IMG/VR virus record: IMGVR_UViG_3300020416_000657
DNA from: an uncultured virus (IMG/VR IMGVR_UViG_3300020416_000657)
Taxonomy: Duplodnaviria > Heunggongvirae > Uroviricota > Caudoviricetes
Direction: 5' to 3' (one strand)
DNA: 62,980 nucleotides
Shown here: in pieces, positions 1 to 62,980 of the stretch
Numbering within the stretch: position 1 is the first letter of the stretch
Layout: the number at the start of each line of letters is the position of its first letter
Program-made: the position numbers and the translations under genes
The notes under the pieces: model-generated
What the model was told of the DNA's origin: nothing
The model's database searches: none
The model's input: only the letters and a program-made list of their open reading frames with translations

Positions 1-145
1 TAGGTTTGAACTAGAAAATGTTATTGATTGGTGGAAAAAGAAAGCCGTCAAAAGATATAGCAACTTGGTCTCAGATGGAAGAATAAGAAAAGATTTGGAA
101 GTCTGGAATTCTGAAACAATTAACAAAATAGATATAATAAGATGA
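1..145 (+). CDS. 3' end of a gene truncated by the window edge (hypothetical)
   Basis: Open frame from position 2 (RFELENVIDWWKKK...DIIR) to TGA 143-145, overlapping the next ATG (ATGA). Confidence 0.7.
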   Translation, partial: RFELENVIDWWKKKAVKRYSNLVSDGRIRKDLEVWNSETINKIDIIR

Positions 146-393
146 ACATAGAAATTTATTCAAAACCAGATTGCCCCTTCTGTGACAGGGCTGTGCATAT
201 TGCACAACAAATAGTACAAGAAACAACACATATCAAGTATGAGAAAAAAATGTTAGATGAAGATTTTACATTTGATGAACTGCTTGAAAAATCACCTCAC
301 GCCAGAACATTCCCACAGATATTTGTGGACGGTGAACTGATTGGTGGTTTCAATGACTTTGAAAAAATGGAGTGGTGGGCTGACAGACAATGA
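142..393 (+). CDS. Glutaredoxin (T4 NrdC-like)
   Basis: CPFC active site, TFPQIF and IGGF motifs. Confidence 0.92.
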   Translation: MNIEIYSKPDCPFCDRAVHIAQQIVQETTHIKYEKKMLDEDFTFDELLEKSPHARTFPQIFVDGELIGGFNDFEKMEWWADRQ

Positions 394-803
394 AAAACTC
401 CCTTGGTTTAGTTGTAGAGGATATAGACGAACCAATACTAGGAAGACCAGAAAACTCTGGTAAGAGACTAGAACTATTGGTTGAAAAGTTTTGTAAGCAA
501 AACTCTATTGGATATACAAGAGCTAAATCTGGTGCGAGAGAAATTGATTTCATTATTACCAAGGACGAACAAATATTTTATGCTGATTGTACAAATCAAA
601 ATGTTGGGGGTAGTGTAGAAGAAAAACTACCACATAAAATTTGGAAGTATTATAAACAGTATCAATATGACGAGGTTTATATTATAACAGGCAGTCATAA
701 AATAAGTAGAAGTGTTTTGAGTCATTGTAAAGAGATTGGTGACATTTATAGTTTCACTCCACACTTTGTTGACTTAGATAATTTTACAAGGATAATAAAA
801 TGA
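390..803 (+). CDS. PD-(D/E)XK restriction-endonuclease-like protein
   Basis: IDF...ADCTNQNVGGSVEEKLP resembles the D...ExK.Q..GS..EK pattern; catalytic K position is T. Confidence 0.5.
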   Translation: MKNSLGLVVEDIDEPILGRPENSGKRLELLVEKFCKQNSIGYTRAKSGAREIDFIITKDEQIFYADCTNQNVGGSVEEKLPHKIWKYYKQYQYDEVYIITGSHKISRSVLSHCKEIGDIYSFTPHFVDLDNFTRIIK

Positions 804-1207
804 AGGTAGGATTTACTTGTGGTGCATTTGATTTACTACACGCTGGTCATGTAGTTATGCTTGAAGAGGCAAAAGATAATTGTGACTTTCTTATGGTGGG
901 ATTACAAACAGACCCCACACTAGACAGGTCAAATAAAAACAAACCAGTACAAAGTATATACGAGCGATACATTCAGTTGTATGGTCTCAGATATGTTGAT
1001 GAGGTTATCCCATACGACAGGGAAAGTTGTTTGATGGATATACTCAATACGAAACGAATTGACATAAGATTTGTCGGTGAAGAGTATAAAGATGAGATGT
1101 TTACAGGGAGTCATTTACCCATAGAGGTTTACTATACCAGTAGAGCACACACTTTCTCTTCTACAGATTTAAGAAAACGAGTGAGGAATGCTCCTAAACC
1201 AAAATGA
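800..1207 (+). CDS. Cytidylyltransferase-like protein (TagD-like)
   Basis: GAFDLLHAGH (HxGH), VDEVIPY, C-terminal SST motif. Confidence 0.9.
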   Translation: MKVGFTCGAFDLLHAGHVVMLEEAKDNCDFLMVGLQTDPTLDRSNKNKPVQSIYERYIQLYGLRYVDEVIPYDRESCLMDILNTKRIDIRFVGEEYKDEMFTGSHLPIEVYYTSRAHTFSSTDLRKRVRNAPKPK

Positions 1208-1520
1208 CATTGGTGGATATGTTGCTAAGGAAGACGATAGATATATTGTCAAGGATAATCCTTTTGGTAACACATTAGTAATTAGTAGTACGCGATTGCG
1301 TGGTGGACAGGAAACTACTGGACATGAACACGATGGTCAAGAAGAGGTATATTTTTTTATTGAAGGTGAAGGTATCATAGAATTAGATTCGTTATACACC
1401 AATGTTAAGGCTGGCGATATAGTACCAATTCAAGATGGTGTCTTTCACAAAGTTTATAATAGTTCAGATGACAATGATTTATATTTCATTTGTGTGTTTG
1501 ACGGAAAGAGAAAAGTATGA
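1188..1520 (+). CDS. Cupin-domain protein (sugar isomerase-like)
   Basis: GHEH...EEVYFFIEGEG...GDIVPI..GVFHKVYN cupin motifs. Confidence 0.85.
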   Translation: MLLNQNDIGGYVAKEDDRYIVKDNPFGNTLVISSTRLRGGQETTGHEHDGQEEVYFFIEGEGIIELDSLYTNVKAGDIVPIQDGVFHKVYNSSDDNDLYFICVFDGKRKV

Positions 1521-2518
1521 AGATAACATGTGCTAGATTGCGGTCTAATGTAAAGTATGAAGGCCCACTACAAACGGTACTAGATAGTTTTTTAGAGAAC
1601 TATGTGAAGTGGATGAGGGCAAACCCCCAACACCAGTACGGAACCTATAACATATCATTTGATGGTACTAGACCCAAGAGAACACCAGAGTCAATAGAAT
1701 GGGCTGACGCGATAGTAATCCCTAGTGATAGTGAGTTTAGATATCATGGTGAGTTACAAATGAATCCAAAAGACTTGGCGAAGTCACAGGCCCACATGGA
1801 TAACATCATACCATTCTTTAAAGACAAACATGTTATTGTCATGAGAAGTGATAGAGGTGATGACGAAAAGTTATACAGAGAAGAAACACTACAGAATGTG
1901 CCAATCAAATCTTACACAGAGATTGATGAGATTGATTTCTCTGGTAACATACACGGAATGAAGTATCACTTTATAAGAAACAAATTTGGCAACCCACTAT
2001 TCACTACGGCAAAGAGAACCGACTTTGGATATTGGGGACGCATGAAGACAGGGTGTAACCGCGATAAGATTATTAGAAAGATTTATCGTGACCCAGACTT
2101 AAGCACATGTTTGATTGGTGGATTTCCATCTGGTATTCAAAGACAGGCTTCGTGGATAAAAGATTGGAATCAATTATATCCTATGTTAGAACCATGCAGA
2201 TGGACATTATGTTTTAACTGGAAGGATGAGACTGCTACTACATCTAGATATGTGGAGGCACTCGCAATAGGAATGATACCTTTTGTGTGGAAACAGTACG
2301 ACAAGAACAACACATATAACATAGACCCTTGGCAAAGAATAGAAGACTTTGATGATTTGAAATCTAAGGTCATGGAGTTGAGGGATGAAAGTTTGTTAGA
2401 TAAAAAACTTGAAGAGTATAGAATGAACTATGGTAAGAAACTATTAACTCTTGAGGGATACTATGAGATATTCTCTCATAAAATGAATGGGGTATTGAAT
2501 GAAGATAGCGTTAGTTAA
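1517..2518 (+). CDS. GT-B glycosyltransferase resembling T4 DNA beta-glucosyltransferase
   Basis: KRTDFGYWGRMKTG.NR and TTSRYVEALA...DLKSKVMELR resemble remembered T4 BGT segments; lies directly upstream of gp47, where T4 has alpha-gt. Confidence 0.7.
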   Translation: MKITCARLRSNVKYEGPLQTVLDSFLENYVKWMRANPQHQYGTYNISFDGTRPKRTPESIEWADAIVIPSDSEFRYHGELQMNPKDLAKSQAHMDNIIPFFKDKHVIVMRSDRGDDEKLYREETLQNVPIKSYTEIDEIDFSGNIHGMKYHFIRNKFGNPLFTTAKRTDFGYWGRMKTGCNRDKIIRKIYRDPDLSTCLIGGFPSGIQRQASWIKDWNQLYPMLEPCRWTLCFNWKDETATTSRYVEALAIGMIPFVWKQYDKNNTYNIDPWQRIEDFDDLKSKVMELRDESLLDKKLEEYRMNYGKKLLTLEGYYEIFSHKMNGVLNEDSVS

Positions 2519-3551
2519 CGATACACACTTTGGTGCGAGGTCAGACAGTTTGCCGTTTGATTCGTATTTCAGAAAATTCTATGATGAGTTCTTCTTTCCA
2601 GCACTAGCGGAAAGAGAGATAAAAACAATTATGCATTTGGGTGATATCTTTGATAGAAGAAAGTATATGAATTACAACACACTCAAGAGTTGTAAAGAGT
2701 ATTTCTTCAACCAAGCAAAAGACCTAAATATAGATATGCATGTGGTGCCAGGCAACCACGATACTTATTTCAAAAACACCAATGATGTCAATGCACCAGA
2801 ATTACTATTACAAGAGTATGATAATGTCATCGTATATCCAGAAATTACAGAGTTAGAATTTGATGGGAGAAAAATTTTATTTGTTCCTTGGATATGTAGC
2901 GATAATTATGAGTCTACTATGGAAATGGTCAAAAGAACTGACGCAGAAGTATGTTTCGGCCACTTTGAATTCGCTGGGTTCCAAATGTATAAAGGTCTGC
3001 CAAATGAGCATGGAATGGATCATAATGCCTTTGAGCGCTTCGATTTGGTTTGTAGTGGTCATTACCATCACCGTTCTGCTAGGGATAATGTGGTGTATCT
3101 TGGTAACCCTTATGAAATTACATGGTCTGATTTCAACGATAATAGAGGGTTCAATATCTATGATACGCAAACTAATGAATTAGAATTCATGCAAAATCCA
3201 TTTAGAATGTTTCATAAGATATTCTATAATGATGTTGATGATGATGTAGAATATGATTTGACTAATTTAGTTGGCGGATGTGTAAAAGTTATTGTTGTAA
3301 AGAAAGAAAACTTTGCTAAGTTTGACAAACTGATTGACTCATTATACAGTTGTAATCTAGTGGAGTTAAAGATTATAGAAGACTTTTCAGAGTTTGAGGA
3401 TAACGCGGTAGGAGAAATGGATTTGAAACTTGATGATACAATTACATTGTTAAATGATTATGTTGATAATACCGTAACAGATTTAGACAAAGAAAGATTA
3501 AAGAGTGTATTGCAATCCTTATATGTAGAAGCACAACACATAGAGGTTTAG
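2499..3551 (+). CDS. gp47: Recombination endonuclease subunit (Mre11/SbcD-like)
   Basis: DTHFG, LGDIFD, GNHD, SGHYH phosphoesterase motifs; near gp46. Confidence 0.96.
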   Translation: MKIALVNDTHFGARSDSLPFDSYFRKFYDEFFFPALAEREIKTIMHLGDIFDRRKYMNYNTLKSCKEYFFNQAKDLNIDMHVVPGNHDTYFKNTNDVNAPELLLQEYDNVIVYPEITELEFDGRKILFVPWICSDNYESTMEMVKRTDAEVCFGHFEFAGFQMYKGLPNEHGMDHNAFERFDLVCSGHYHHRSARDNVVYLGNPYEITWSDFNDNRGFNIYDTQTNELEFMQNPFRMFHKIFYNDVDDDVEYDLTNLVGGCVKVIVVKKENFAKFDKLIDSLYSCNLVELKIIEDFSEFEDNAVGEMDLKLDDTITLLNDYVDNTVTDLDKERLKSVLQSLYVEAQHIEV

Positions 3552-4424
3552 ATGTTACACATACCAGAGTATGAAGAAGGTAAAAAATATCTGGTAGTTT
3601 CTGGATGTTCGTTTACCGCACCAACTAATCAATGGCCAGAAAATAATCTTCCCAATGATGGCACTAGTAATTCATGGGGAGAACATACTGCTGACGAATT
3701 AGATATGGTTTGTATCAATGCTGCTTTTGCTGGTGTTGGTAATAACATGATTATGAGACAAGTGTTGTATACACTTTCTAGGATGTTTGAAATGGGATAC
3801 CCAACATCGGCAATAACGGTTGGTGTTATGTGGTCTAGTTATGATAGAACTGAAATTTATAAACATGATTCGGAACCAAAAATAGGTGCTAAAGGTGTAC
3901 CATTCCACCCAAGAAGACCAATTAAAGATTGTAACGGAGAATGGATTCCTTTTAATCCAGCCACCGTATATTTCATAGAGGAACAACTCAACTCAAAAAC
4001 ACCGTTTGTAAAATTTAATCCAAAAGCAAGAGAGTATGTTGAAATAGGAAGGTCTATTTATTTTAAAACTTGGGCGAATGAAGTACAAAGAATCATACAC
4101 AGTTTGCAATGCGTCATGGGAACACAGGAGTTTCTAATCAATAGAAACATAAAATATTTTTTTCATAGATATGCCGAAAATTGTTTTAGTGAACAGAGTG
4201 AAGTTTACCAAGACCCAGAGATATCTTGGATTAGTAATTTAATTAATTGGGAAAACTTTATACCTAGTGGTGAATTTGAGTGGTGTTATGAAAACACTAA
4301 AACTAAATTCGTAGAAGAAACTAGATTGGGTTGGGACAGGAAAAATAACATTATGCACCCCACGGTGATACAACATAAAAAATATGCAGAGGAGATGGTA
4401 GTACCTTTTATCAAAAATTTATGA
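3552..4424 (+). CDS. SGNH/GDSL-hydrolase-like hypothetical protein (paralog 1)
   Basis: SGCSFT, G.GN, VMWS..DR.E, C-terminal HP...H. Confidence 0.6.
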   Translation: MLHIPEYEEGKKYLVVSGCSFTAPTNQWPENNLPNDGTSNSWGEHTADELDMVCINAAFAGVGNNMIMRQVLYTLSRMFEMGYPTSAITVGVMWSSYDRTEIYKHDSEPKIGAKGVPFHPRRPIKDCNGEWIPFNPATVYFIEEQLNSKTPFVKFNPKAREYVEIGRSIYFKTWANEVQRIIHSLQCVMGTQEFLINRNIKYFFHRYAENCFSEQSEVYQDPEISWISNLINWENFIPSGEFEWCYENTKTKFVEETRLGWDRKNNIMHPTVIQHKKYAEEMVVPFIKNL

Positions 4425-6091
4425 TTACATTTGAAAAAATAAGATGGAAAAATTTCTTGTCTACAGGAAATAGTTTTACAGAGATAGAGTTTAATCGAAG
4501 TCCTAGCACTCTAGTGGTAGGTGAGAATGGTAGTGGTAAATCCACAATGCTTGATGCTGTATGTTTTTCTTTATTTAATAAACCATTCCGTAAGATTAGT
4601 AAAACTCAGTTGATAAACTCAATCAACAATAAAAAGATGATTGTTGAAATAGAGTTTAGAATAGGCGGTAAAGAGTTTAAAGTTATTCGCGGTGTTAAAC
4701 CAAGTATCTTTGAGGTATATTGTAACGGGCAGATGTTAGACCAAGATGCTGCTGTAAGAGATACACAGAAATACCTTGAAGAAAGTATATTGAAGATGAA
4801 CTTCAAATCGTTTACTCAAATAGTAATACTGGGAAGTGCTTCCTTTACGCCATTTATGCAGTTGCCTACAGCATCTCGCCGAGAAATTATCGAGGACATA
4901 CTTGATATCGAAATATTTACGACTATGAATCAAGTGTTACGCGAGAAGATTGCCGTCCTTAGAGATGAAATTAGAGATGTGGAATCAGAAGTGGAAGTAG
5001 CAAAATCCAAAGCAACGGTTCAAAGAAAGTATATTGAACAGTTGGAAAAGGACAAGAAAATTAAAGTTGATAAAATTAAGGAGAAAATTGATGAGCTCAT
5101 CGAGGCGACTACTGAACTTGAGACAAAACTTGCAGAGACAACAGCAGAGAAGGAGAGTCATGATGACCCGAAAGAACGGAAACGCAAACTGGATGCTCTC
5201 AAAGACAAACTCAACTCTAACCTCAGAAAAGCAAGAAAAGAACTTGACTTCTACCACGACACAGAAGAATGCCCTACCTGTAAACAAGGATTAACCCATG
5301 AGTTCAAAGAAGAAAAACAAAAAGAAAAATCAGAAAGAATACAAGAGTTAGAAACTGGTTTACACGATATGGATGCAGAGTATAGTTCTGTCCACGATGC
5401 AATAGAAAAGTATGACCAGATTGTGACTGACATAACAGAGATTCAAAGTGAACTTATAACTCAAGAAAGATACAAGAATAGATTAACTTTGGAACTAAAT
5501 GAAGCAGAAACTAATGTTGCTGATATAGATGATGAGAGAAACAGACTTAAAGAAATGGCTGTTGACCTAACAAATAAAAACAAAGAAAAAACTAGTAAGG
5601 GTGAAGAACAACATTATAATACTGCCGCTGCTAGTCTGCTTAAAGACACAGGAATTAAGACTAGAGTTATAAGACAGTATCTACCAATCATCAATCAGTT
5701 GGTGAATAAATATTTGGCTGCTATGGATTTCTTTGTTCACTTTGATTTAGATGAAAAGTTCAATGAAACAATAAAGTCCAGACATAGAGATAAGTTTTCT
5801 TACTCCAGTTTTAGTGAGGGTGAGAAACAAAGAATAGACTTGGCATTATTATTTACATGGCGTACAATTGCTAAAATGAAAAATAGTGCGAGTACCAACC
5901 TGTTATTACTAGATGAAGTATTTGACAGTTCCTTGGATAACAATGGGGTTGACTATGTAATGAACCTATTGAATACCATAGGAGAGGAAACCAATGTGTT
6001 TGTGATTTCTCACAAGGGTGACCAGTTGTTTGATAAATTTAGAAATCAGATTAAATTTGAAAAGATAAGAAACTATAGTGTGATGTCATGA
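4421..6091 (+). CDS. gp46: Recombination ATPase (Rad50/SbcC-like)
   Basis: GENGSGKS Walker A, CPTC hook, SFSEGEK signature, LLLDEVFD. Confidence 0.97.
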   Translation: MITFEKIRWKNFLSTGNSFTEIEFNRSPSTLVVGENGSGKSTMLDAVCFSLFNKPFRKISKTQLINSINNKKMIVEIEFRIGGKEFKVIRGVKPSIFEVYCNGQMLDQDAAVRDTQKYLEESILKMNFKSFTQIVILGSASFTPFMQLPTASRREIIEDILDIEIFTTMNQVLREKIAVLRDEIRDVESEVEVAKSKATVQRKYIEQLEKDKKIKVDKIKEKIDELIEATTELETKLAETTAEKESHDDPKERKRKLDALKDKLNSNLRKARKELDFYHDTEECPTCKQGLTHEFKEEKQKEKSERIQELETGLHDMDAEYSSVHDAIEKYDQIVTDITEIQSELITQERYKNRLTLELNEAETNVADIDDERNRLKEMAVDLTNKNKEKTSKGEEQHYNTAAASLLKDTGIKTRVIRQYLPIINQLVNKYLAAMDFFVHFDLDEKFNETIKSRHRDKFSYSSFSEGEKQRIDLALLFTWRTIAKMKNSASTNLLLLDEVFDSSLDNNGVDYVMNLLNTIGEETNVFVISHKGDQLFDKFRNQIKFEKIRNYSVMS

Positions 6092-6621: not shown

Positions 6622-6648
6622 TATCACATATGAATAGAGACCGTAACT

Positions 6649-7423: not shown

Positions 7424-7432
7424 GAGTAAACA

Positions 7433-7582: not shown

Positions 7583-7591
7583 GAGAGAAAC

Positions 7592-10689: not shown

Positions 10690-10771
10690 GTGGTTGATTT
10701 TACAGGGAAAGAAAATGAAAAAAAATTCATTTTGGCCCTTGACTTCTGCCCCCAAATATGGGATCATGATC
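10687..10771 (+). promoter_or_regulatory. IHF-consensus site (reverse) plus promoter with GATCAT -10
   Basis: TAAGTGGTTGATT 10687-10699; TTGACT 10739-10744, 17 nt, GATCAT 10762-10767, second GATC at 10768. Confidence 0.8.
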
Positions 10772-10801
10772 AAGTAATTGAGAAAAAGTGAGAGGTAAAT
10801 T

Positions 10802-13753: not shown

Positions 13754-14368
13754 ATGAAAATCGAAGTTGGTCAAAAACTGCCACAAGATATCACTTTTCA
13801 CATGAGGGTGAGGGATGAAAATATGGTGGCACAGGGTGATGATAACCCATACATTTGGCAGATGGTTAATTCAACTGACTTGTTCAAGGATAAAAGGGTA
13901 GTTCTTTTTTCTTTGCCAGGCGCTTTTACTCCAACATGTTCTACTTATCAACTACCAGACTATGACAATAATTACGAATTGTTCAAAGCAAATGGTATTG
14001 ATGAAGTGTATTGTCTATCTGTTAATGATAGTTTTGTTATGAACAAGTGGGGTGATTGGTTGGACATCGATAATGTCAAATTAATTCCAGATGGTAGTGC
14101 TTATTTTACTGAGCAAATGGGTGCATTGGTAAGGAAAGACAATCTAGGATTTGGCGCTAGGTCATGGAGATATTCTTTACTCGCAAATGATGGAGTAGTT
14201 GAAGTCGCATTTGTCGAAGATGGATGTGGTGACGATTGTCCAACAGACCCATATGAAGTGTCTGACCCCTTAACTATGATGGAGTATATTCAAACTGTTA
14301 GTCCAGTAGGTAGACAGCACGAATTAAATCTTGAAGATGGATTGGGAACAGAAGAACAGTTTGCATAA
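13754..14368 (+). CDS. Peroxiredoxin (Prx5 type)
   Basis: SLPGAFTPTCS, SVNDSFVM, GFGARSWRY. Confidence 0.93.
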   Translation: MKIEVGQKLPQDITFHMRVRDENMVAQGDDNPYIWQMVNSTDLFKDKRVVLFSLPGAFTPTCSTYQLPDYDNNYELFKANGIDEVYCLSVNDSFVMNKWGDWLDIDNVKLIPDGSAYFTEQMGALVRKDNLGFGARSWRYSLLANDGVVEVAFVEDGCGDDCPTDPYEVSDPLTMMEYIQTVSPVGRQHELNLEDGLGTEEQFA

Positions 14369-15152
14369 AGTTGATTACGATTTAAAACCTTTATCAAAAG
14401 AACTCGCAATAGATTTTATACAAACGCATCATTATTCACCTATGATGCCTAAACTTACGAAACACTATTTGGGGTGTTTCTTGGAAGGTGAATTAGTAGG
14501 CGTTTTGACTCTGGGATGGGGAACACAACCTAGACAAACAATCAATAAAATGTTTACAGGTCTGGAGTCAAAGCATTACTGGGAGATTGGTAAGATGTGC
14601 ATGACGGATGAAATGCCAACCAATTCCGAATCACAAATGATAAAGAAAACTGTGAGATGGATAAAAGATAATTGTCCAGATGTATTGTTTCTTTATACAA
14701 TGGCAGATGGTATCATGGGTAAGTGTGGATATGTATATCAGGCAAGTAATTTTTTATACGGTGGACAATACTTCACTCAAGTATATGAAATAAATGGTGA
14801 GAAGGTTCACCCAAGAGCAACAAGAAAGTTATGTGAGGAGAACGCAAAGTTCTCTGGCAAAGAGAGAGTTTTTTGGTTGACTTCAGATTTTATGCAAGAG
14901 AAGGGAATCAAAAAAATAGAAGGGTATATGTTTAGATATATCTTTCCGCTGAATAAGAAAGCAAAAAAATTATTGAAAAAATCAAATATGGAATGGACTA
15001 GAACTTATCCAAAAGACCATGACCTAAAATGGTTTGATAAAACATCCAATCCAAAATTTGAAATCGAACAACCTCACTTCACATATGATGAAGTTCTCCA
15101 TAACGCGAGGAATATATCTGGTGGTGGGGCATCTTTAAGAGGAATATTATGA
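14331..15152 (+). CDS. Mom-like GNAT-family DNA modification protein (start may be TTG 14361)
   Basis: HHYS...LVGVLTLG...EIGKMC...NSES...AD...GYVYQASNFLY pattern. Confidence 0.7.
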   Translation: MKMDWEQKNSLHKVDYDLKPLSKELAIDFIQTHHYSPMMPKLTKHYLGCFLEGELVGVLTLGWGTQPRQTINKMFTGLESKHYWEIGKMCMTDEMPTNSESQMIKKTVRWIKDNCPDVLFLYTMADGIMGKCGYVYQASNFLYGGQYFTQVYEINGEKVHPRATRKLCEENAKFSGKERVFWLTSDFMQEKGIKKIEGYMFRYIFPLNKKAKKLLKKSNMEWTRTYPKDHDLKWFDKTSNPKFEIEQPHFTYDEVLHNARNISGGGASLRGIL

Positions 15153-25884: not shown

Positions 25885-25969
25885 TAAGTTGTTGATTTAG
25901 AAGGATATTTAATTTCACTTTTTTTCGCTTTGGCCCTTGACATTTGGGTCAAAATATGGGATCATGATC
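25885..25969 (+). promoter_or_regulatory. IHF-consensus site (reverse) plus promoter with GATCAT -10
   Basis: TAAGTTGTTGATT 25885-97; TTGACA 25937-42, 17 nt, GATCAT 25960-65, second GATC at 25966. Confidence 0.8.
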
Positions 25970-25996
25970 GTATAAATGAGAGAAGTGAGAGAAAAT

Positions 25997-47519: not shown

Positions 47520-48635
47520 ATGTGGAACTACTATGATGTTAACTCTATGACCATAGAACTATCTAGTCTATGTAATGCCGCTTGTCCGTGGTGTCCTAGA
47601 TACGAAGATTTTTCTAAAGTAGTTAACAGACAACTAGAACCACAGTATATAACTATTGACCAGTTTAAAGAGTGGTTTCCACCAGATTTTATGTCCAGAA
47701 TAAAACTATGGGCATTTACAGGGGATTATGGTGACGCTGGTACTAATCCAGATTTACCAGACATTATAAGACACATATATGAACACAACCCCAATGCTCA
47801 ACTATCGATGAACACTAACGGTGGTATGAGAACACCAGAGTTTTGGGGGTTACTTGGTCAGTTGTTTTCTAGAAAGGAACACAACAATATGATATTCTCA
47901 ATAGATGGACTTGAGGATACGAACCACATATACAGGAGAAATGTTAGGTGGAACAAACTAATGGAAAATGTTCTCGCGTTTCTGGATGCTGGTGGTAAGG
48001 CGACATGGGAGTGTTTGGTATTCCAACATAACCAACACCAGATAGATGAGATAAGAGATTTAGGAAAACACATGGGGTTTTCTGAGGTGCATTTTAAAAT
48101 GCCAAAAGGATTTGAGAAAGATAATATAAGAGTAAAAGATAAGAAAGGTGAATACCTCTATACAATATATCCTACTAGTGAAGACCAGATATCAAAAGGA
48201 TATCCAGATTTACACGGTAAGAAGGCAGAAGACTTAGATTATGAAGAAATTAGAGATGATATGGAGTCATATTATTCTAATGAACAGGGGGAAATAAAAT
48301 GTTTTTCCCAAAGAGATGACTTGACAGAATTAAAGATAACATCGTGGGGTACTGTATATCCATGTTGCCATTTTGGACACATATCTAAACATCAACGAGA
48401 GAATCAACAGTACTATAAAGCTCAACTTATCGACATATTCAAGGATAAAAATATATCTCTCAAGTCAAGAACATTAAAAGATATATTGGATGATGACCCA
48501 TTCAATTGGATTTACAATAGTTGGAAAAAGAAATCATGTCTGGCATGTTGGTCAAATTGTGGTGTGTCAGAAAGTAAACAACCAATAATGCAACAGATAT
48601 TTAATAAGGAAGGGAAGTTATATGGCACAACATAA
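47520..48635 (+). CDS. Radical SAM protein with SPASM/twitch-like C-terminus
   Basis: CNAACPWC, TNGG, FSIDG, VYPCC, CLAC..NC. Confidence 0.9.
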   Translation: MWNYYDVNSMTIELSSLCNAACPWCPRYEDFSKVVNRQLEPQYITIDQFKEWFPPDFMSRIKLWAFTGDYGDAGTNPDLPDIIRHIYEHNPNAQLSMNTNGGMRTPEFWGLLGQLFSRKEHNNMIFSIDGLEDTNHIYRRNVRWNKLMENVLAFLDAGGKATWECLVFQHNQHQIDEIRDLGKHMGFSEVHFKMPKGFEKDNIRVKDKKGEYLYTIYPTSEDQISKGYPDLHGKKAEDLDYEEIRDDMESYYSNEQGEIKCFSQRDDLTELKITSWGTVYPCCHFGHISKHQRENQQYYKAQLIDIFKDKNISLKSRTLKDILDDDPFNWIYNSWKKKSCLACWSNCGVSESKQPIMQQIFNKEGKLYGTT

Positions 48636-49242
48636 TGATATACGCGGATGGATGATGGACGGTGACTATAATGCCATAGAGAAGGTTTGTTCAGAGTTTC
48701 TAAATAGGGATTATGTCGAAGTATTTGAAATAGGAACCCTATATGGCAAAAGTGCCATTGCTTTTGATGACGCATTGAAAACTGTACCCCATCACATCAC
48801 CACAATGGATGTGTGTGAGGGTTGGATAGGGCCTTCAGATGAAATAATAGAGATGTTGGGACTAGATGACAATTTCAAGGCAATGCGTGATGCAAATAGA
48901 AGTACAGCAGAAGAACAGTTCGATGAGATACACACAAATATCTTGAATAGGGATATAACCTTTATCGATGATAAATGGGAACTTGGTTACGATTATCCAG
49001 TAGTCAGTCCCGATATAGTATTTTATGATGGTTCACATAGTTATGAGGAAACGAGAGATATTCTTCAATACTGGAGTGAGATTGCTGTTGAGGGAAAAGT
49101 ATTGGTAATTGATGATTACAATCATACACAATGGGAAGGACTCAAAAAGGCAGTAGATGAGTTTATAGATAAAACAGGGTGGGAGATAACTTCATACCCA
49201 GATTCAAAAATGATATCAATAAGGATAAACAATGATAGTTGA
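48622..49242 (+). CDS. Class I SAM-dependent methyltransferase (Methyltransf_24-like)
   Basis: EIGTLYGKS, YDGSHSYE, IDDY. Confidence 0.85.
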   Translation: MAQHNDIRGWMMDGDYNAIEKVCSEFLNRDYVEVFEIGTLYGKSAIAFDDALKTVPHHITTMDVCEGWIGPSDEIIEMLGLDDNFKAMRDANRSTAEEQFDEIHTNILNRDITFIDDKWELGYDYPVVSPDIVFYDGSHSYEETRDILQYWSEIAVEGKVLVIDDYNHTQWEGLKKAVDEFIDKTGWEITSYPDSKMISIRINNDS

Positions 49243-49951
49243 TTTTCACGGTTACGAATTGGAGTGCGATGAAACGGTATTCAGACCCACTACTATAAGC
49301 GAACTAACAGCACCAAGGATACCAGTAGAAGGTAAAAAGGTTTTAGACCTTGGATGTGGTGTTGGCCCATTATCGATATACTTTGCAAAGAATGGTGCCA
49401 AGTCTGTAACTGCTACCGATGTGTACGACAAACATATAGAATATACAAAGATAAACGCGGAAAAGAACGAGGTAGATATAGAGGTATTCCAGAGTGACAT
49501 CTTTGAAAATATTACAGATAAATATGATATCATTTGTTGTGATGTGTCTGGAGTAGACAGAAGAGTCGCAGAGATGACAGGTTGGTTCCCAGAAGGAGTG
49601 CCTACAGCAGATACTACAGGTTCCGATTTGATTTGTGAGGCAACCAAACACTCACCAGAATATTTGAATGAGGGTGGGGAGTTGTATATATGCACAACAT
49701 CATGGTCAGACTTACAAAAGATACAATTGATGATGATATTTACGCCACTCATGACTCAAGGAGAGGTTATATTCTCACAGGAGATTCCTTTTTCAAGACG
49801 ATTGATGGCAAACTTGGATAACTTAGACCCCAAACGAGGGGCAGTACCCACTACAGAACAATATTTTTACACGAAACAAGGCGATAGTTACATCAAGGAT
49901 GGTGATGACTATAGATGGAAGTTTAATCTATGGCGGATGGCAAGACTCTGA
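49232..49951 (+). CDS. Class I SAM-dependent methyltransferase (HemK/PrmC-like)
   Basis: VFRP, VLDLGCGVG, SDIF, L..GG.L; lacks NPPY. Confidence 0.8.
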   Translation: MIVDFHGYELECDETVFRPTTISELTAPRIPVEGKKVLDLGCGVGPLSIYFAKNGAKSVTATDVYDKHIEYTKINAEKNEVDIEVFQSDIFENITDKYDIICCDVSGVDRRVAEMTGWFPEGVPTADTTGSDLICEATKHSPEYLNEGGELYICTTSWSDLQKIQLMMIFTPLMTQGEVIFSQEIPFSRRLMANLDNLDPKRGAVPTTEQYFYTKQGDSYIKDGDDYRWKFNLWRMARL

Positions 49952-55189: not shown

Positions 55190-55219
55190 ATATACTATAT
55201 AACATAAAGGAGTCCAGTA

Positions 55220-56603: not shown

Positions 56604-56614
56604 TGAGGTAAAAC

Positions 56615-57106: not shown

Positions 57107-57360
57107 TGGCGGACTTAACCAATCAACTAATCCACACTTTAAAAATCTATTTTGATAGTCAGATAAACAAGCATAAAATAAATGTACAAGTTCTGATGCA
57201 AAAAGGCGTGGGAGTTGCAGAACATCCAGATATAATGCAAACGATTGAGGATGAACTTGGCAAAATTGCTGAATTCAAGGATAAACTAGAAGCACTTGAT
57301 GACCTTGAAGTATCAGAAGAGAATCAGCTGAGTTTTTTAAGGGAAGATGGCACGACCTAG
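57106..57360 (+). CDS. Hypothetical protein
   Basis: VGVAEHPDI..TIE.EL. Confidence 0.75.
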   Translation: MADLTNQLIHTLKIYFDSQINKHKINVQVLMQKGVGVAEHPDIMQTIEDELGKIAEFKDKLEALDDLEVSEENQLSFLREDGTT

Positions 57361-57877: not shown

Positions 57878-57911
57878 AAATTATTTTCATTTTTTTTGCT
57901 TTTTCCAGTTA

Positions 57912-57980
57912 AATCAATGACTTACAGAGGCGGATTTTTCGCCCAAACGCTTGACTTTTGCCCCCAATTCTGTCATGATC
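57912..57980 (+). promoter_or_regulatory. IHF-consensus site plus promoter with GATC overlapping -10
   Basis: AATCAATGACTTA 57912-24; TTGACT 57951-56, 17 nt, CATGAT, GATC 57977-80. Confidence 0.75.
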
Positions 57981-58012
57981 ATTATGTAAGATAAATCATG
58001 AGAGGAAATAAT

Positions 58013-58261
58013 ATGACAAATAAAATCAATTTCGTAGGTGCAAAAGATGGTGGTCTTGTGTTCGTTCTTGAGAATGACACTTATGAGAACAACATTCACG
58101 GCAAAAACCTTGAAGAGTGTGCTTTGATTATCGCAAAACACGGTCTTGCTGACAGGGTGATGGGTTCTTCTTCAATGGACTTTGCTAGTGAGGATGGATT
58201 TGAAACCGATGATGGTGCGATGACTATGTACCAATATGCAATCAAATTGGCGGGAGTTTAA
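58013..58261 (+). CDS. Hypothetical early protein
   Basis: RBS GAGG; SSSMDFA.E.GF motif. Confidence 0.75.
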   Translation: MTNKINFVGAKDGGLVFVLENDTYENNIHGKNLEECALIIAKHGLADRVMGSSSMDFASEDGFETDDGAMTMYQYAIKLAGV

Positions 58262-58262
58262 T

Positions 58263-58487
58263 ATGGCAGAACAAGAAATCGCATTGACAGTAACTATGAA
58301 TCAGTTGATTGAGAAAATGGGTGCCCCCAAAGGCACTACCTATGACCAGTTAGATGCTGGACAACAAGCACATATCGATGGATATTGTGAACAATTTGAT
58401 GATGAGATTGACCACGCTGGTGGCCAATGTTTTTGTGGCGAGTACGGATGCCCAGATGCGTATGTACATGCTACGAGTGGGTGGTAA
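58263..58487 (+). CDS. Hypothetical protein with C-terminal Cys/His cluster
   Basis: CFCG...CPDAYVHATSGW. Confidence 0.7.
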   Translation: MAEQEIALTVTMNQLIEKMGAPKGTTYDQLDAGQQAHIDGYCEQFDDEIDHAGGQCFCGEYGCPDAYVHATSGW

Positions 58488-59089
58488 TGGTTAAACATAA
58501 AAAAGTAATTTTGACGGATTGTGATGGAGTCTGCCTAGATTGGGAGACTGCATTTTTCACATGGATGGCGCATAATGGGATGAACCCAGTAGGCGAAGAT
58601 TGGAAACTCAAGTATAAAGTTTCCCAGAGATTTGGCGTAACGCAGGCAGAAGGTCAGAGATTGACTAATCAGTTCAACAGTTCTGCCGCTATCGGATTTC
58701 TGCCCCCTCTGAGGGATGCACAACACTATATGAAATTGTTGGCAGAGAAACACGGATATAAGTTTGTCGCTGTCACTAGTTTACATAGTGACCCATACGC
58801 ACAAGAGTTGAGAACTCAAAACCTTAAAAAGTTATTTGGAGAAGATACATTTCTGGAGTATCACTATTTGGATTGTGGTGCTGACAAAGATGATATACTT
58901 GAAGAATTGAGTCATAAATACTACGGCGCTCCTTGGATAGAGGACAAGTATGTCAATGTTGAAGTTGGCATGAAAGTAGGATTCCAAGGATTTCTAATCG
59001 AACACGGGCATAACCTAAACTATGAAGGGGATGCTACGGTTGTCAAAAATTGGGAGCAAATATATGACACGCTTACTACAGGAAGTTGA
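58487..59089 (+). CDS. HAD-family nucleotidase-like protein (T4 30.2-like)
   Basis: ILTDCDGV, VTSL, WIEDK. Confidence 0.85.
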   Translation: MVKHKKVILTDCDGVCLDWETAFFTWMAHNGMNPVGEDWKLKYKVSQRFGVTQAEGQRLTNQFNSSAAIGFLPPLRDAQHYMKLLAEKHGYKFVAVTSLHSDPYAQELRTQNLKKLFGEDTFLEYHYLDCGADKDDILEELSHKYYGAPWIEDKYVNVEVGMKVGFQGFLIEHGHNLNYEGDATVVKNWEQIYDTLTTGS

Positions 59090-59246
59090 CCACGATTTAG
59101 GTCTTGAATTTGACTCATTTTGCCATGAGTTGTTTCACCAGAATTGTTCAGAGAGGGAAGCATATAACGAACCTCTGCTCACTTTTGAAGAATATGTGGC
59201 AAAGTGCAAGGATTTTCTAATAGAAGAATTTAAAAAGAGGAGTTAA
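59064..59246 (+). CDS. Hypothetical protein
   Basis: RBS GGAG; NC.ER.AY...TF.EY. Confidence 0.65.
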   Translation: MTRLLQEVDHDLGLEFDSFCHELFHQNCSEREAYNEPLLTFEEYVAKCKDFLIEEFKKRS

Positions 59247-59247
59247 C

Positions 59248-59481
59248 ATGATTGGTCTTGAATTGGCCGCTGCCATATTGGGCATCGGTTTTTATCTAGC
59301 ATACCAAATGGGATTTAAAAAAGGAACAAACGCATCCGCCCATGCCACTATGATTATCATGAGGGAATTTCTCAATCATAGTCAAGGTTCAGATTGGACA
59401 GATATCACGCTGGGCAAAAACATGAACCGCGTACATAGATGGATAGCGGAGATGGATAATGGCGAGGAAGAAAAATCCTAG
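59248..59481 (+). CDS. Hypothetical membrane protein
   Basis: RBS GAGGAG; N-terminal TM. Confidence 0.7.
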   Translation: MIGLELAAAILGIGFYLAYQMGFKKGTNASAHATMIIMREFLNHSQGSDWTDITLGKNMNRVHRWIAEMDNGEEEKS

Positions 59482-59800
59482 TTTAATTCAATACGAATCT
59501 ATGCTCCAGAAATTCAATTGGAATTGGGAGATGGATTATGAGATGGAACAAATGGACGATGTGCCGATAAAAATACGCTCTAAGAATGAGGCGATTGAGG
59601 ACGAATTGATAAATTACAGTATGATATCACCAATGCATACCGAGTTATATAACGCTCATATGGTGTACGCGACTGAGGATGGCCCGAAACCTAAACTATG
59701 GAAAGCGGGAAAAGAAAACGGAAAAACTGTCTACAAAATCATGCACGATAACGGTGACGGTTTAATTTTTGATTGGAGAAAACAACATGTACGAATATAA
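59459..59800 (+). CDS. Hypothetical protein
   Basis: Coupled 113-aa ORF. Confidence 0.7.
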   Translation: MARKKNPSLIQYESMLQKFNWNWEMDYEMEQMDDVPIKIRSKNEAIEDELINYSMISPMHTELYNAHMVYATEDGPKPKLWKAGKENGKTVYKIMHDNGDGLIFDWRKQHVRI

Positions 59801-60152
59801 TGTAGTAATACAACGCTGGGTGGATGGCGATACAGTAGATGTCGATATAGATTTAGGCTTTGGTGTATGGTTAAATGACCAGCGCGTAAGACTGGCAGGC
59901 ATCAACGCCCCAGAAAGCAGAACGCGAGACTTAGAAGAGAAGAAACTAGGACTGGCGGCAAAAGACTTCTGTAAAAACTTCTGTAAAGAAGGAGAGTATG
60001 CTAAATTGGTGTGTAAGAAGTATGATGCCAAGGGCAAATTCGGAAGGATTCTAGGGGAGATTTGGAGCGTAACGCAATTCGCAGATAAATCATTGAACGA
60101 ATATTTACTTGATAAGGGACACGCTACAGAATATCATGGCGGCAAAAGGTAG
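59787..60152 (+). CDS. Thermonuclease (SNase-like)
   Basis: VDGDT, RVRLAGINAPE, GKFGRILG. Confidence 0.9.
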   Translation: MYEYNVVIQRWVDGDTVDVDIDLGFGVWLNDQRVRLAGINAPESRTRDLEEKKLGLAAKDFCKNFCKEGEYAKLVCKKYDAKGKFGRILGEIWSVTQFADKSLNEYLLDKGHATEYHGGKR

Positions 60153-61110
60153 TCTATCCAGAAATCTAATTACAGGCGGTTGCTCTTTCACGGCACATAA
60201 GACGCGAGAAACTCTAGCATGGGCTGAACAATTAGAAGAGAAATACGATAATGTGATTAACACCGCTGAGATGGCAAGCGGGAATCAGATTATCTGTGAC
60301 AGGATATGCTACGAATTAAGTAAACCAGAAGTAACGAGTGAGAACACCGCTGTCGCCGTTATGTGGTCATCGCCATATAGAAAAGAATTCCTATTCACAT
60401 ATGATGACCCAGACTATACAGAGATATGGCAAAAATTCAAAGACAAAATAGGATTCAGCAACTATATTCTAACAGATAAACAACACGAGAAACATTCCAC
60501 ATCCAACTGGCTTATAGTAGGGGGCGGATATGGCATCTGGAATTACGAAGTAACGCCGCTGGACGCTAGATTGAAAAACTATTTTACTGACATATACAAT
60601 CCCGAAGAGGCATATGTAAGCACTCTGAGGGCCATGATTACTGTACAAGCGTTATGTGAGGCGAAGAAAATCCCGCTGTTAAACATGTGCTGGCAGAATG
60701 TCTTTCATGATTTGGGGAGTAGAGATTTCGAGAGTGAGCAGAGTTTTTGGAAAAAGGATATAGTTAGCACGACAGGATGGTTATATACGCGACTGAGAAC
60801 AGCATTTAGCAACAGATTACGCGATAAAGGATTACTGAATGAACAGGAAATGAAATCCGATATGCATAACAAAAGGATTGATAGATTATATCCCAATACA
60901 AAACATTGGTTTGAGCTAATCGATTGGGGTACATGGCATTTCTATGAGAACGAATTAATACAGAAAGGTGGATTACAGGAGTTTGCTCATTTTGAGTGTA
61001 AAGTAAAGAGTGAGGATTTAAATAAACATCCAAGCACAAAAACACAGATAAAATGGCGAAAAAGAATAATGAAAGAACTTGAGGAGCGATATGGAGTGGA
61101 AGAAATTTAA
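60136..61110 (+). CDS. SGNH-like hypothetical protein (paralog 4)
   Basis: GGCSFT, ASGN, VMWSS..R.E, KHPS. Confidence 0.6.
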   Translation: MAAKGSLSRNLITGGCSFTAHKTRETLAWAEQLEEKYDNVINTAEMASGNQIICDRICYELSKPEVTSENTAVAVMWSSPYRKEFLFTYDDPDYTEIWQKFKDKIGFSNYILTDKQHEKHSTSNWLIVGGGYGIWNYEVTPLDARLKNYFTDIYNPEEAYVSTLRAMITVQALCEAKKIPLLNMCWQNVFHDLGSRDFESEQSFWKKDIVSTTGWLYTRLRTAFSNRLRDKGLLNEQEMKSDMHNKRIDRLYPNTKHWFELIDWGTWHFYENELIQKGGLQEFAHFECKVKSEDLNKHPSTKTQIKWRKRIMKELEERYGVEEI

Positions 61111-61294
61111 ACAAACATTATGGGGCAGTAAAGAGGAACGAATACAGGAAGTAGTCGCTGACCCCGCTGATTTGAGTGTAGAGAACGCATATAAGACAAG
61201 ATGGATATGGTATCACACTATATTAGGGTTGCTTATGCTAGTCGCTGATATACTCTTGGTAGGAATATTAATCGTTTTAGCAATCAAACTGTGA
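61091..61294 (+). CDS. Small membrane protein
   Basis: RBS GAGGAG; NAYKTRWIWYHTIL plus TM. Confidence 0.7.
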   Translation: MEWKKFKQTLWGSKEERIQEVVADPADLSVENAYKTRWIWYHTILGLLMLVADILLVGILIVLAIKL

Positions 61295-61302
61295 GGAGAG
61301 TC

Positions 61303-61452
61303 ATGAATAATGTTTTAATTTTATTAATCGGTATCTGGATAGGTATGGGAATGCCTCTGCCAGACTGTATATTCACTTATTGTACTGAGGAAGCAGCGTA
61401 TGAAGAAACATGGGACAAAGGTAAATCGTGTGGAGAGTATGAGTCGCAATGA
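61303..61452 (+). CDS. Small secreted/membrane peptide (49 aa)
   Basis: RBS GAGGAG; MNNVLILLIGIWIGMG... Confidence 0.6.
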   Translation: MNNVLILLIGIWIGMGMPLPDCIFTYCTEEAAYEETWDKGKSCGEYESQ

Positions 61453-61650
61453 GCATACCAGACTTAAACGCATTAGTAATAAGACAATTAGGAGAGCGGG
61501 TAAACGACACACAGAGAGTTCTGTACTTGAACTGTGGAGGGAAAAAAGTGGGAAATAGTGGTAATCTAAATCCGCGAGTGAGCAGGAGTGAGCGCCGCCG
61601 CCCTTCCGAAAAATCAGACGCCGCTGCCGCTCCCAGACGCGGTAAACAGA

Positions 61651-61680
61651 GATCATACCACAGCACAGCACTAATGTCAA
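61651..61680 (-). promoter_or_regulatory. Leftward sigma70-type promoter with GATC overlapping -10
   Basis: Minus strand TTGACA-17-TATGAT(C) with TG extension. Confidence 0.65.
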
Positions 61681-61744
61681 GCACTTTCCGCCATCTGTGG
61701 TGGCAGTGGCTGTGAAAATAATTCGTCTTTTTTGAAGAAAACGC

Positions 61745-61773
61745 TTGACAACTGCTATTTCCATGTGTATAAT
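61745..61773 (+). promoter_or_regulatory. Consensus sigma70 promoter
   Basis: TTGACA-17-TATAAT. Confidence 0.8.
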
Positions 61774-61808
61774 AAGGTGTCGCCTTTAAGAAGAGATATG
61801 GCTGCTGC

Positions 61809-61879
61809 TAAGTGATTGATATATAAGGGAAATAAAAGATAAAATAATCCTTGACATCTGGTCTCATTTATGGGATCAT
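61809..61879 (+). promoter_or_regulatory. IHF-consensus site (reverse) plus promoter with GATCAT -10
   Basis: TAAGTGATTGATA 61809-21; TTGACA 61851-56, 17 nt, GATCAT 61874-79. Confidence 0.8.
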
Positions 61880-61884
61880 ATACA

Positions 61885-62297
61885 CATACTGAGAGATGAG
61901 GAGATTGACCATGGCATGACGATAGATTAAACCCCAGTTAAACCGCACCATCTCACCTGTGTTGAGGTTCAGAAAGAGTGCTATCGGGGTCGGATATGAA
62001 CACAGGGGCCGATTTGAAAGGTGGCATTGACCACGCTCCGATGAGGCCATGGCAGGGGGGACGCAGCCCCATCAAAAGGCGGAGAGAAACTTAAAAGGAG
62101 AGCCCAGTAGGGCAGGGCAGAGTAAGGACTATCTGCTAGCAGGGTTGTGCCTCAATACACACGCGCTCCCCCACGGTTAGGGGAGCATCACTCGGCGAGG
62201 GCAGGGGTCAGGCGGGCCTATGCTTTGGGATCGGGGTGGACGCCCTTACAAGGGCATCTGGCATCCCCCCATATATGAAACGATTTTAATTTTTTTT
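61885..62297 (+). ncRNA. Candidate ~400-nt structured non-coding RNA
   Basis: Follows a strong promoter, no credible ORF, GC-rich relative to the genome, many helices, ends in a GC hairpin and T-run. Confidence 0.6.
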
Positions 62298-62328
62298 GCC
62301 GACAGAAATTTTCCGCCCAGAGGTTTTT

Positions 62329-62766
62329 ATGACAGATATAATTTTTGATGTAGATGGCACTCTTATGGATATAGAACATAGGAGGCATTTCGTCACACAG
62401 CGCCCCAAGGACTTTAAATCGTTTCGAGAACATACAAAATTCGATACTAGAAAAGAGGATATCTTTGCCATTGCGGATGCGTTACAGGCACAGGGGCATC
62501 GTATTCTTATATCTACAGGGCGTATTAAGGATGAGCATGATATCACCGTTAAACAGATACGAGATGGCGGTATAGACTTTGATGCCATATACATGCGTTC
62601 TAATACAGATTACCGTCCCGATGATGAATTAAAAGCAGGATACTTACAGCGTATGCGTTTAGATGGTTACAATCCTACTATGGCATTTGATGACCGTCAG
62701 CGTGTTGTGGATATGTTTCGTTCTAAGGGATTAACAGTATTTCAAGTGGCAGAAGGAGATTTCTAA
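62329..62766 (+). CDS. HAD phosphatase resembling the 3'-phosphatase domain of T4 polynucleotide kinase
   Basis: FDVDGTL, STGR, MR...DYRPD..LK, FDDR..VV.M, QVAEGDF. Confidence 0.88.
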   Translation: MTDIIFDVDGTLMDIEHRRHFVTQRPKDFKSFREHTKFDTRKEDIFAIADALQAQGHRILISTGRIKDEHDITVKQIRDGGIDFDAIYMRSNTDYRPDDELKAGYLQRMRLDGYNPTMAFDDRQRVVDMFRSKGLTVFQVAEGDF

Positions 62767-62980
62767 ATGGGAGTATATGGACATTCTACACCCCCACCAG
62801 AGGATAGACCTTCGTATGAGGAGTGGAGCAAAGACAAGTATGACCGATATGCGGATGATTTCGATTTAAACGCGATTGGGACATTAATGCATATACTCTG
62901 GAAAGGGAAGTGGTTCTTTATTCCAGCGGTTCTGCTTGTACTTCTATATAAACCTATCTATTGGACAGTTCTGAATGTGT
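62767..62980 (+). CDS. Hypothetical membrane protein, truncated at window end
   Basis: RBS AAGGAG; open frame MGVYGHSTPP... to the edge. Confidence 0.65.
   Translation, partial: MGVYGHSTPPPEDRPSYEEWSKDKYDRYADDFDLNAIGTLMHILWKGKWFFIPAVLLVLLYKPIYWTVLNV

Follow-up and report, generated by a model that had tools for sequence, protein, structure and literature searches.

A GCY-context footprint of probable DNA protection in an uncultured marine T4-like phage clade, with a DUF4338/DruA-family GNAT as candidate writer

Background

Phage T4 replaces every cytosine of its DNA, and the hydroxymethylcytosine that depends on gp42 is glucosylated by β- and α-glucosyltransferases (BGT and AGT). A different recourse is the classical avoidance of restriction sites, in which palindromic words of four to six bases are driven to zero or nearly so. 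Modification in a short context is also known. Phage C5-cytosine methyltransferases paired with TET enzymes are reported to have GCY specificity (Burke et al. 2021, PMC8256090), and Mom of phage Mu (PF25680; PDB 8bv8) is described (PMC13219725) as carrying out the Gly-tRNA-dependent N6-carbamoylmethylation of adenine in an SAS context. The case considered here is a 62,980-base stretch of the uncultured virus IMGVR_UViG_3300020416_000657 (the window, meaning the whole stretch analysed), in which several restriction words survive only where one of their cytosines lies in 5'-G-C-Y-3', and which opens on the 3' end of a gene of the DUF4338/DruA family, the candidate source of a protective DNA mark.

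The window resembles the classical cases in that ACGT, GATC, GGWCC, CGWCG and TTCGAA are all at or near zero; unlike them, it contains survivors of other words that follow a single flank rule, which suggests a second layer, a shield. With the C5-methyltransferase/TET systems it shares the GCY context, here read from the survivors, and the shield would likewise be phage-encoded, protective and sometimes glycosylated afterwards; however, no C5-methyltransferase or TET gene was found in the searches described below, and the candidate writer has an acyltransferase fold. Like Mu Mom, the candidate is a GNAT-fold phage enzyme that would lay down a post-replicative mark in a short context and so block many restriction enzymes, but its target would be the C:G pair of GCY and not adenine, since the rescued GCCGG contains no A. 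As in T4, a BGT/AGT-like protein is found together with a T4-like replication module. Unlike T4, the footprint is context-specific, and Pfam scans of the window and of the near-complete relative G4 detected no dCMP hydroxymethylase family (PF00303-type), only ThyX.

Avoided words in the window

Expected counts for the window are means over 300 synonymous-codon shuffles within genes, and counts are given as observed versus expected. A first-pass annotation of the same DNA had listed by eye a set of missing words and had proposed counting them against a codon-shuffled null, split by flanking base. These counts uphold its central observations. GGWCC, which it took to be absent, does not occur (0 vs 34.3 ± 4.4; lowest shuffle 23). 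The 24 Gly-Pro pairs are, as it had claimed, all written with GGC (17) or GGG (7), yet GGT and GGA together make up 958 of 1241 glycine codons (77%). All 42 copies of GGNCC are GGCCC or GGGCC (GGSCC, 42 vs 24.6); the statement that GGNCC survives only with GCC is thus correct but indistinguishable from plain avoidance of GGWCC.

CCGG is found four times (vs 45.6), at the very positions that had been noticed by eye, each time with a 5' G and in three of the four with a 3' C as well. With neither flank it is absent (HCCGGD, 0 vs 29.8); the one-sided form GCCGGD stands at 1 vs 13.9 and GCCGGC at 3 vs 2.0. CCSGG is missing (0 vs 9.8). CCWGG with neither flank is also missing (HCCWGGD, 0 vs 26.9), and its 20 copies all read CCAGGC on the A-bearing strand (CCAGGC, 20 vs 8.9), the 19 Pro-Gly pairs being without exception CCA-GGC or CCT-GGN preceded by G. 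The earlier description of CCWGG as confined to CCAGGC or GCCTGG therefore holds for 20 of 20 sites, but it needs a correction, in that the rescue is asymmetric (GCCAGGD, 0 vs 6.4; HCCAGGC, 9 vs 7.3) and the pattern falls within a broader word that is missing as a whole, YCAGGD (TCAGGD, 0 vs 64.9 with both strands counted; CCAGGD, 0 vs 33.6). TCAGGC is at expectation (14 vs 13.1). The asymmetric YCAGG word suggests a non-palindromic host enzyme of a type IIS- or III-like kind; we know of no enzyme with a YCAGG-not-C site. As side observations, YCAGG without a 3' C is found on neither strand against about 98 expected, GCAGGT is rare (1 vs 16.8) and ACAGG is enriched.

Other words are purged with no rescue by flanks: ACGT (0 vs 103), GATC (15 vs 185), CASTG (1 vs 65) and CGWCG (0 vs 33.5). 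A search over all IUPAC 6-mers returned YCMGGD, ACGT, CGWCG, CASTG, GGWCC, TTCGAA and YGCGCR as absent words. Many restriction specificities have shaped this phage, with a flank-dependent escape from some and none from others. The GpC dinucleotide itself is not enriched (2023 vs 2165).

The GCY rule

Three relatives were put together from their fragments: G2 (161 kb, with a rated completeness of 91% and a nucleotide identity of about 85-93% across the window), G4 (166 kb, 100% complete by CheckV, polymerase identity 82%) and G5 (162 kb, polymerase identity 59%). Every surviving copy of CCGG, CCWGG, CCSGG, GCGC, GGNCC or CTGCAG in these two and in the window places one of its own cytosines in G-C-Y on at least one strand, the two being G2 and G4 (GCY on one strand being RGC on the other), and in the window all survivors of CCGG, CCWGG and GGNCC overlap GCC. 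Copies outside GCY number zero in all three genomes, against expectations in the window, G2 and G4 of 29.7, 87.5 and 122.6 for CCGG, 26.4, 88.0 and 116.4 for CCWGG, 13.1, 23.9 and 24.3 for GCGC (YGCGCR), and 6.6, 19.2 and 30.5 for CTGCAG, whose survivors have a 5' G or a 3' C in 11 of 11 cases. Since G4 avoids CGCG altogether, the clearest view of GCGC comes from the window and G2. In these two, TGCGCG/CGCGCA (0 vs 18.0), TGCGCA (0 vs 14.6) and CGCGCG (0 vs 4.1) are absent and AGCGCG/CGCGCT is near expectation (16 vs 17.3).

When all IUPAC 3-mers with the middle base inside the word were scanned, GCY came first, covering 850 of 850 survivors as compared with 44.9% of the null. GCC alone covers 90.5% of survivors; GCN covers all of them and 51.9% of the null. 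A rule of any GpC is ruled out by the failure of GCR flanks to rescue: a G flank that creates GCR leaves CGWCG at 0 vs 11.5 in the window, 25.3 in G2 and 35.9 in G4, and CASTG at 1 vs 23.7 in the window, and no survivor has GCR only, where about 115 of 850 would be expected. A GCC-only rule misses the remaining survivors, since GCT rescues GCGC and CTGCAG; T as well as C counts at the third position. RGCY is likewise ruled out, as position -2 carries no further constraint. The first-pass proposal that a modified GpC shields overlapping sites thus stands in so far as overlap with a G-C context rescues purged words, and fails in its context, which is G-C-Y. Its companion idea, that the specificity of a modification could be read from composition, is supported.

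Distribution among relatives and cultured phages

Both near-complete relatives, G2 and G4, obey the rule. HCCWGGD is absent from all 36 related loci whose polymerase is at least 82% identical, and occurs at least once in all 35 whose polymerase is at most 70% identical; G5 shows no avoidance (GGWCC 83, unflanked CCGG 85). Avoidance under the GCY rule is a trait of a clade. Unflanked CCGG reappears in certain sublineages, which is what variation among host enzymes would lead one to expect.

Eight cultured phages that carry the DUF4338 gene were compared with seven that do not, absence of the gene being judged by a profile search with a positive control and by tblastn. The non-carriers S-PM2, S-MbCM7, S-H9-2 and Sf-CH3 avoid CCGG whatever its flank (Table 1). 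In the carriers S-PRM1 and S-CAM9, the CCGG survivors have a 5' G in 32 of 32 and 37 of 37 cases. Another carrier, S-SSM7, shows rescue of CCWGG (observed/expected 10/191 unshielded and 196/75 shielded, so that 196 of 206 sites are shielded), of CTGCAG (0/32 and 27/13; 27 of 27 sites shielded) and of GCGC (0/23 and 49/80). S-PM2, S-MbCM7, S-PRM1 and S-T4 all come from WH7803, and the difference therefore lies in the phage and not in the host.

Table 1. CCGG in cultured phages with and without the DUF4338 gene (observed/expected)
Phage	DUF4338 gene	Unshielded CCGG	Shielded CCGG	Host
S-PM2	no	0/102	0/46	WH7803
S-MbCM7	no	0/106	2/48	WH7803
S-H9-2	no	0/91	0/48	WH8102
Sf-CH3	no	0/128	0/60	WH8102
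S-PRM1	yes	0/118	32/48	WH7803
S-CAM9	yes	0/122	37/51	
S-T4	yes	2/116	11/47	WH7803
HTVC008M (pelagiphage)	yes	10/38	41/17	

The RGCY words AGCT, AGCC/GGCT and GGCC, all of which contain GCY, point the same way. They are 3- to 20-fold depleted in seven of seven cultured non-carriers; S-PRM1 and S-CAM9 have them at close to the expected number, and in S-T4 and in the clade of the window the depletion is relaxed. The depletion in non-carriers looks like RGCY-type restriction pressure in marine Synechococcus. An 'm4C-type' RGCY is given, in PMC8919816, as the modified motif most often seen in the metagenome-assembled genomes of marine viruses, nine of them RGCY-positive, by SMRT sequencing (single-molecule real-time).

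The candidate writer

Most of the window's copy of the DUF4338 gene lies upstream of the window (Table 2); the G2 homologue, at 76289-77398, encodes 370 amino acids. The gene was found among the G4 ORFs (open reading frames) shared with G2 but not with G5, its product being 84% identical between G2 and G4. Of the 200 G4 ORFs it alone has matches in every one of the four trait carriers and in no non-carrier out of eight (tblastn, E 1e-4). The protein matches Pfam PF14236 (E 5.5e-8, 32.7 bits, cut-off 27), to which most of its close homologues are already assigned in precomputed annotation. The gene is present in 31 phage records, usually between the clamp-loader genes gp44 and gp62, and a wider search for DUF4338/DruA homologues gave 5985 matches, with thousands of marine members.

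An AlphaFold2 model built with 43 homologues (predicted local distance difference test, pLDDT, 91.8) has a GNAT fold. In a wide structural search independent of Foldseek, its best match was Mu Mom (8bv8_B; Z 10.2, root-mean-square deviation 3.8, 170 residues aligned). The secondary structure of the model suggests that the protein, like Mom, has helices inserted close to where the GNAT core ends on its C-terminal side; unlike Mom, it is 370 residues long with extra helical parts at both termini, and shows no sequence or profile similarity to it. Its Pfam family is PF14236 and not Mom's PF25680. DUF4338 has been described as a GNAT domain (PMC10853773), and a cyanophage homologue has been called 'Mu-mom-like' on structural grounds (PMC12801897). 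Membership of PF14236 above the Pfam cut-off is what the protein shares with DruA of the type I Druantia system; unlike that system, it is encoded by a stand-alone phage gene, and no DruB-E partners, the large helicase included, were found among the G4 ORFs. A literature search returned no description of the role of DruA itself, and a YprA preprint does not mention it.

The following mechanism would account for these results. Hosts would carry many restriction enzymes, whose target words the phage has purged. After replication, the phage would mark the C:G pair in 5'-G-C-Y-3' (R-G-C on the opposite strand); a target word with a cytosine in this context would be protected and tolerated, and other copies would be selected away. 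The protected words would be GCCGG, GCCWGG and YCAGG-C, GCGC-Y, G-CTGCAG, GGSCC and GGCC. Judged from composition, the shield is probably a covalent, phage-encoded DNA modification. Whether the 370-residue DUF4338/DruA-family GNAT with its Mom-like fold writes it we regard as evenly balanced; by analogy with Mom, which acts on N6 of adenine, its target would be an exocyclic amine, to which it would add an acyl group, N4 of cytosine being the simplest candidate. Taken whole, a GCY mark that protects target words and is written by DUF4338 is the explanation towards which we lean slightly. Still more is claimed by the suggestion that DUF4338/DruA proteins form a second branch of Mom-like DNA-acylating GNATs that act on the GCY C:G pair, most simply to give an N4-acyl or N4-aminoacyl-derived deoxycytidine, and this we put forward as doubtful.

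A number of results weigh against this explanation. On the structural side, ordinary GNATs follow Mom at Z 9.5 to 8, tied within 1 Z, and a profile comparison (hhalign) of the DUF4338 protein with the window's own Mom gave a probability of 0.4%. We know of no GNAT that modifies C or G in DNA. AGCT and AGCC/GGCT, which contain GCY, are still 2- to 3-fold depleted in the clade of the window, and YGCGCR is partly depleted in non-carriers too (S-PM2, for example, 3 vs 33). S-SM2 and S-B68 have DUF4338 proteins of a separate subclade, yet they avoid RGCY/GGCC and show no CCGG rescue. S-SSM7 rescues neither CCGG (0/120 unshielded, 0/46 shielded) nor GGCC, and HTVC008M rescues CCGG but still avoids GGCC; these exceptions call for ad hoc differences between enzymes. 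The carriers were chosen by genotype and are few, amounting to about five independent lineages against four informative non-carriers, and the nearly identical DUF4338 proteins of S-PRM1 and S-CAM9 make these two partly non-independent. Finally, the expectations for cultured phages come from dinucleotide simulations and not from codon shuffles.

Alternative explanations

It is unlikely, though not to be taken lightly, that another, unrecognised phage gene writes the GCY mark while DUF4338 is just its companion or serves some other purpose. Of the ORFs, about half belong to no family, G4 has seven radical S-adenosylmethionine (SAM) genes of unknown role, and the carriers S-SM2 and S-B68 lack the phenotype. 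Against this, the tblastn comparison left no G4 ORF other than DUF4338 with the distribution of the trait.

The source proposed in the first-pass annotation was a C5-cytosine methyltransferase of the phage specific for GpC, here GpC[C/T], with TET oxidation and glycosylation as possible later steps, and it has in its favour both the reported GCY specificity of TET-paired phage enzymes and the presence of a BGT-like transferase. The genes, however, were not found in the window, in four relatives or in five cultured carriers. A profile search for PF00145 was negative in four of four related contigs and five of five cultured carriers, while the control genomes did give matches; a Pfam scan of the 97 window ORFs and 199 of the 200 G4 ORFs detected no C5-, N4- or N6-DNA methyltransferase, no TET/JBP (PF12851) and no tRNA-guanine transglycosylase (TGT) family. 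G4 does have a TauD-family dioxygenase, with no counterpart in the window. The sole PF00145 match is a weak one (E 0.041, 13.7 bits, SAM-binding part only) to a HemK/MTS-like protein without a conserved Cys. This source is now improbable.

In other systems phage DNA is shielded by orphan methylases, Dcm among them, and the failure to find a phage methyltransferase could be taken to mean that an orphan methyltransferase common to all host strains lays the shield, the phage sequence merely adapting to it. This we consider a little less probable again. On the single host strain WH7803, S-PM2 and S-MbCM7 show no rescue and have purged GGCC and RGCY words, whereas S-PRM1 and S-T4 show rescue and keep them.

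The mark might instead sit on guanine, as a 7-deazaguanine derivative that a DpdA-type transglycosylase would insert at R-G-C; G-C-Y reads R-G-C on the opposite strand and the two are indistinguishable by sequence, the window has a QueC-like gene, and phage CAjan reportedly carries a 7-deazaguanine derivative at GA/GGC. This is very unlikely, in that no TGT/DpdA family (PF01702) was detected in the ORF scans of the window or G4, the QueC-like match, the only one to a preQ0 synthesis gene, is confined to the C-terminus, and G5, a genome without the trait, has the gene too. The absence of any modification, with flank-sensitive host enzymes (some restriction enzymes are sensitive to flanking sequence) or a codon or dinucleotide bias as the cause, is scarcely credible when one three-base rule rescues at least five unrelated words, leaves empty classes with expectations of 13 to 123, and has no parallel bias in the codon-shuffled null, G5 or the non-carriers.

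Several named genes were considered as the source of the shield and set aside. The canonical Mom gene of the window (Table 2), located between a peroxiredoxin gene and gp44, is present in G2 (90%) but not in G4, and among cultured trait carriers only in S-SSM7, as a weak match (31% identity, E 8e-9). It is ruled out by its absence from G4, S-PRM1, S-CAM9, S-T4 and HTVC008M and by the lack of an A in GCCGG, so that the true Mom gene, unlike the DUF4338 gene, does not track the trait. The variable island, whose gene content differs among the window, G2 and G4, is excluded since neither of its methyltransferases is DNA-methyltransferase-like or tracks the trait. Within it, the Methyltransf_24 protein has just a weak match in G2. 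The HemK/MTS-like methyltransferase has DVSG in place of DPPY and otherwise only generic class-I matches, and its G4 homologue is not common to all trait carriers. The QueC-like protein and the radical SAM enzyme are rejected because there is no TGT and both have G5 homologues.

Genes beside the candidate writer gene

Downstream of the GNAT gene, the window encodes in order a glutaredoxin, a PD-(D/E)XK nuclease-domain protein, a cytidylyltransferase-like protein, a cupin and a 333-residue protein. The last of these gives the glycosyltransferase step imagined in the first-pass annotation an echo, although the C5-methyltransferase and TET enzymes that were to precede it are missing. Its AlphaFold2 model (pLDDT 84.1) has as top Foldseek matches T4 BGT (1qkj, E 6.5e-6, template-modelling (TM) score 0.58; 1bgt, TM 0.61) and then T4 AGT, above other GT-B enzymes; it has no Pfam, PHROG or NCBIfam match, and its membership in the T4-type glucosyltransferases is one of fold. 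The gene is present in G2, G4 and HTVC008M, and absent from G5, S-PRM1, S-CAM9, S-T4 and S-SSM7. Rescue is still seen in the last four, and the transferase is therefore not needed for the shield. It may decorate the mark further in the clade of the window; that it adds a sugar to the acyl adduct there is a tentative idea, to which we give less than even weight.

The cytidylyltransferase-like protein could activate a sugar or polyol, but its gene is also found in G5 (64% identity) and does not track the trait. The PD-(D/E)XK gene has no tblastn match in 17 genomes, is absent from G2, G4 and G5, and is thus specific to the window.

Table 2. Coordinates of features in the window
Feature	Position	Strand	Basis or remark
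DUF4338/DruA-family GNAT gene, 3' end (last 47 codons and stop)	2..145	+	frame 2 matches the C-terminus of the G2 homologue
PD-(D/E)XK nuclease-domain gene	390..803	+	PF20472, E 1.4e-5
Cytidylyltransferase-like gene	800..1207	+	PF01467, E 4.2e-15
Cupin-domain gene	1188..1520	+	PF07883, E 8.2e-11; among relatives in G2 only
T4 BGT-like (GT-B) protein, candidate DNA glycosyltransferase, 333 residues	1517..2518	+	structural match
CCAGGC/GCCTGG survivors, 20 sites	e.g. 2748, 6379, 13916, 31307, 38706, 54260		exact counts
CCGG survivors, 4 sites	6769, 7206, 13644, 32508		exact counts
Promoter-like elements	10735-10775, 25933-25972		
Canonical Mom-family gene, second separate GNAT DNA modifier	14331..15152	+	PF25680, E 2.3e-58; PHROG 1384 'Mom-like DNA modification protein'
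QueC-like protein, 214 residues	45270..45914	+	
Variable island: twitch-type radical SAM enzyme and two class-I methyltransferases	47520..49951	+	Pfam; adjoins dCMP deaminase
Methyltransf_24 protein (in island)	48622..49239	+	
HemK/MTS-like methyltransferase (in island)	49232..49948	+	

Other features of the window and its relatives

The window (38.2% G+C) has 97 called ORFs, all on the + strand. According to the Pfam scan, its T4-like replication module comprises gp43, gp45, gp44/62, RegA, UvsX, gp41, gp46/47, RNase H and ribonucleotide reductase, together with ThyX, Hsp20 and a CobS-like ATPase. Identity between its DNA polymerase and those of cultured cyanomyoviruses reaches no more than 47%, and IMG/VR holds many close relatives; the phage is an abundant uncultured marine T4-like phage. 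Its QueC-like gene lies between two ribonucleotide-reductase genes, matches only the C-terminal 60 residues of QueC and is conserved in G5. G4 has, from L087:10730 to L088:12095, a cluster of six or seven radical SAM/SPASM genes, partly common to G2, that also holds a carbamoyltransferase, UDP-glucose dehydrogenases, a cupin hydroxylase-like protein and a GNAT-like protein.

Some compositional observations stand apart from the GCY rule. GTCGAC, CTGCAG and GGWCC are avoided in the window although they contain SAS. ACGCG is strongly enriched (ACGCGA, 35 vs 8.9; ACGCGG, 21 vs 4.5; CGCG, 91 vs 58), which the exclusion of ACGT may have brought about indirectly; in G4, CGCG is at zero. GTGCAC is at or near zero in every genome checked, including G5 (1 vs 23). 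A conserved promoter-like element, GCCCTTGAC-N15-TATGGGATCATGATC, is found upstream of two genes, and its two copies together contain 4 of the 15 GATC survivors, 10 of the 15 being GATCAT.

Implications

A literature search found no published description of flank-dependent rescue, which is no proof that none exists. New here are the compositional read-out of GCY in an abundant clade, the host-matched contrast between cultured phages, and the connection with a Mom-like GNAT of the DUF4338 family where no DNA methyltransferase was found. The specificity of a DNA modification can, in such a case, be read from composition alone, and phages on Synechococcus WH7803 provide cultured test systems, with S-PRM1, S-CAM9 and S-T4 on one side and S-PM2 and S-MbCM7 on the other. 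DUF4338/DruA, a part of Druantia with no known role, thereby acquires a testable function.

If DUF4338/DruA proteins do form such a second branch of DNA-acylating GNATs, a DNA base not yet described would be present in very abundant T4-like phages of the ocean, including cultured cyanophages and HTVC008M, and in some lineages the BGT-like transferase would glycosylate the acylated base. This chemistry might also underlie the 'm4C-type RGCY' signal of marine viromes, and so may account for an unexplained SMRT signal; it could also be the mark by which DruA labels self DNA in type I Druantia. If the writer has been correctly named, Mom-type chemistry would extend from adenine to the C:G pair.

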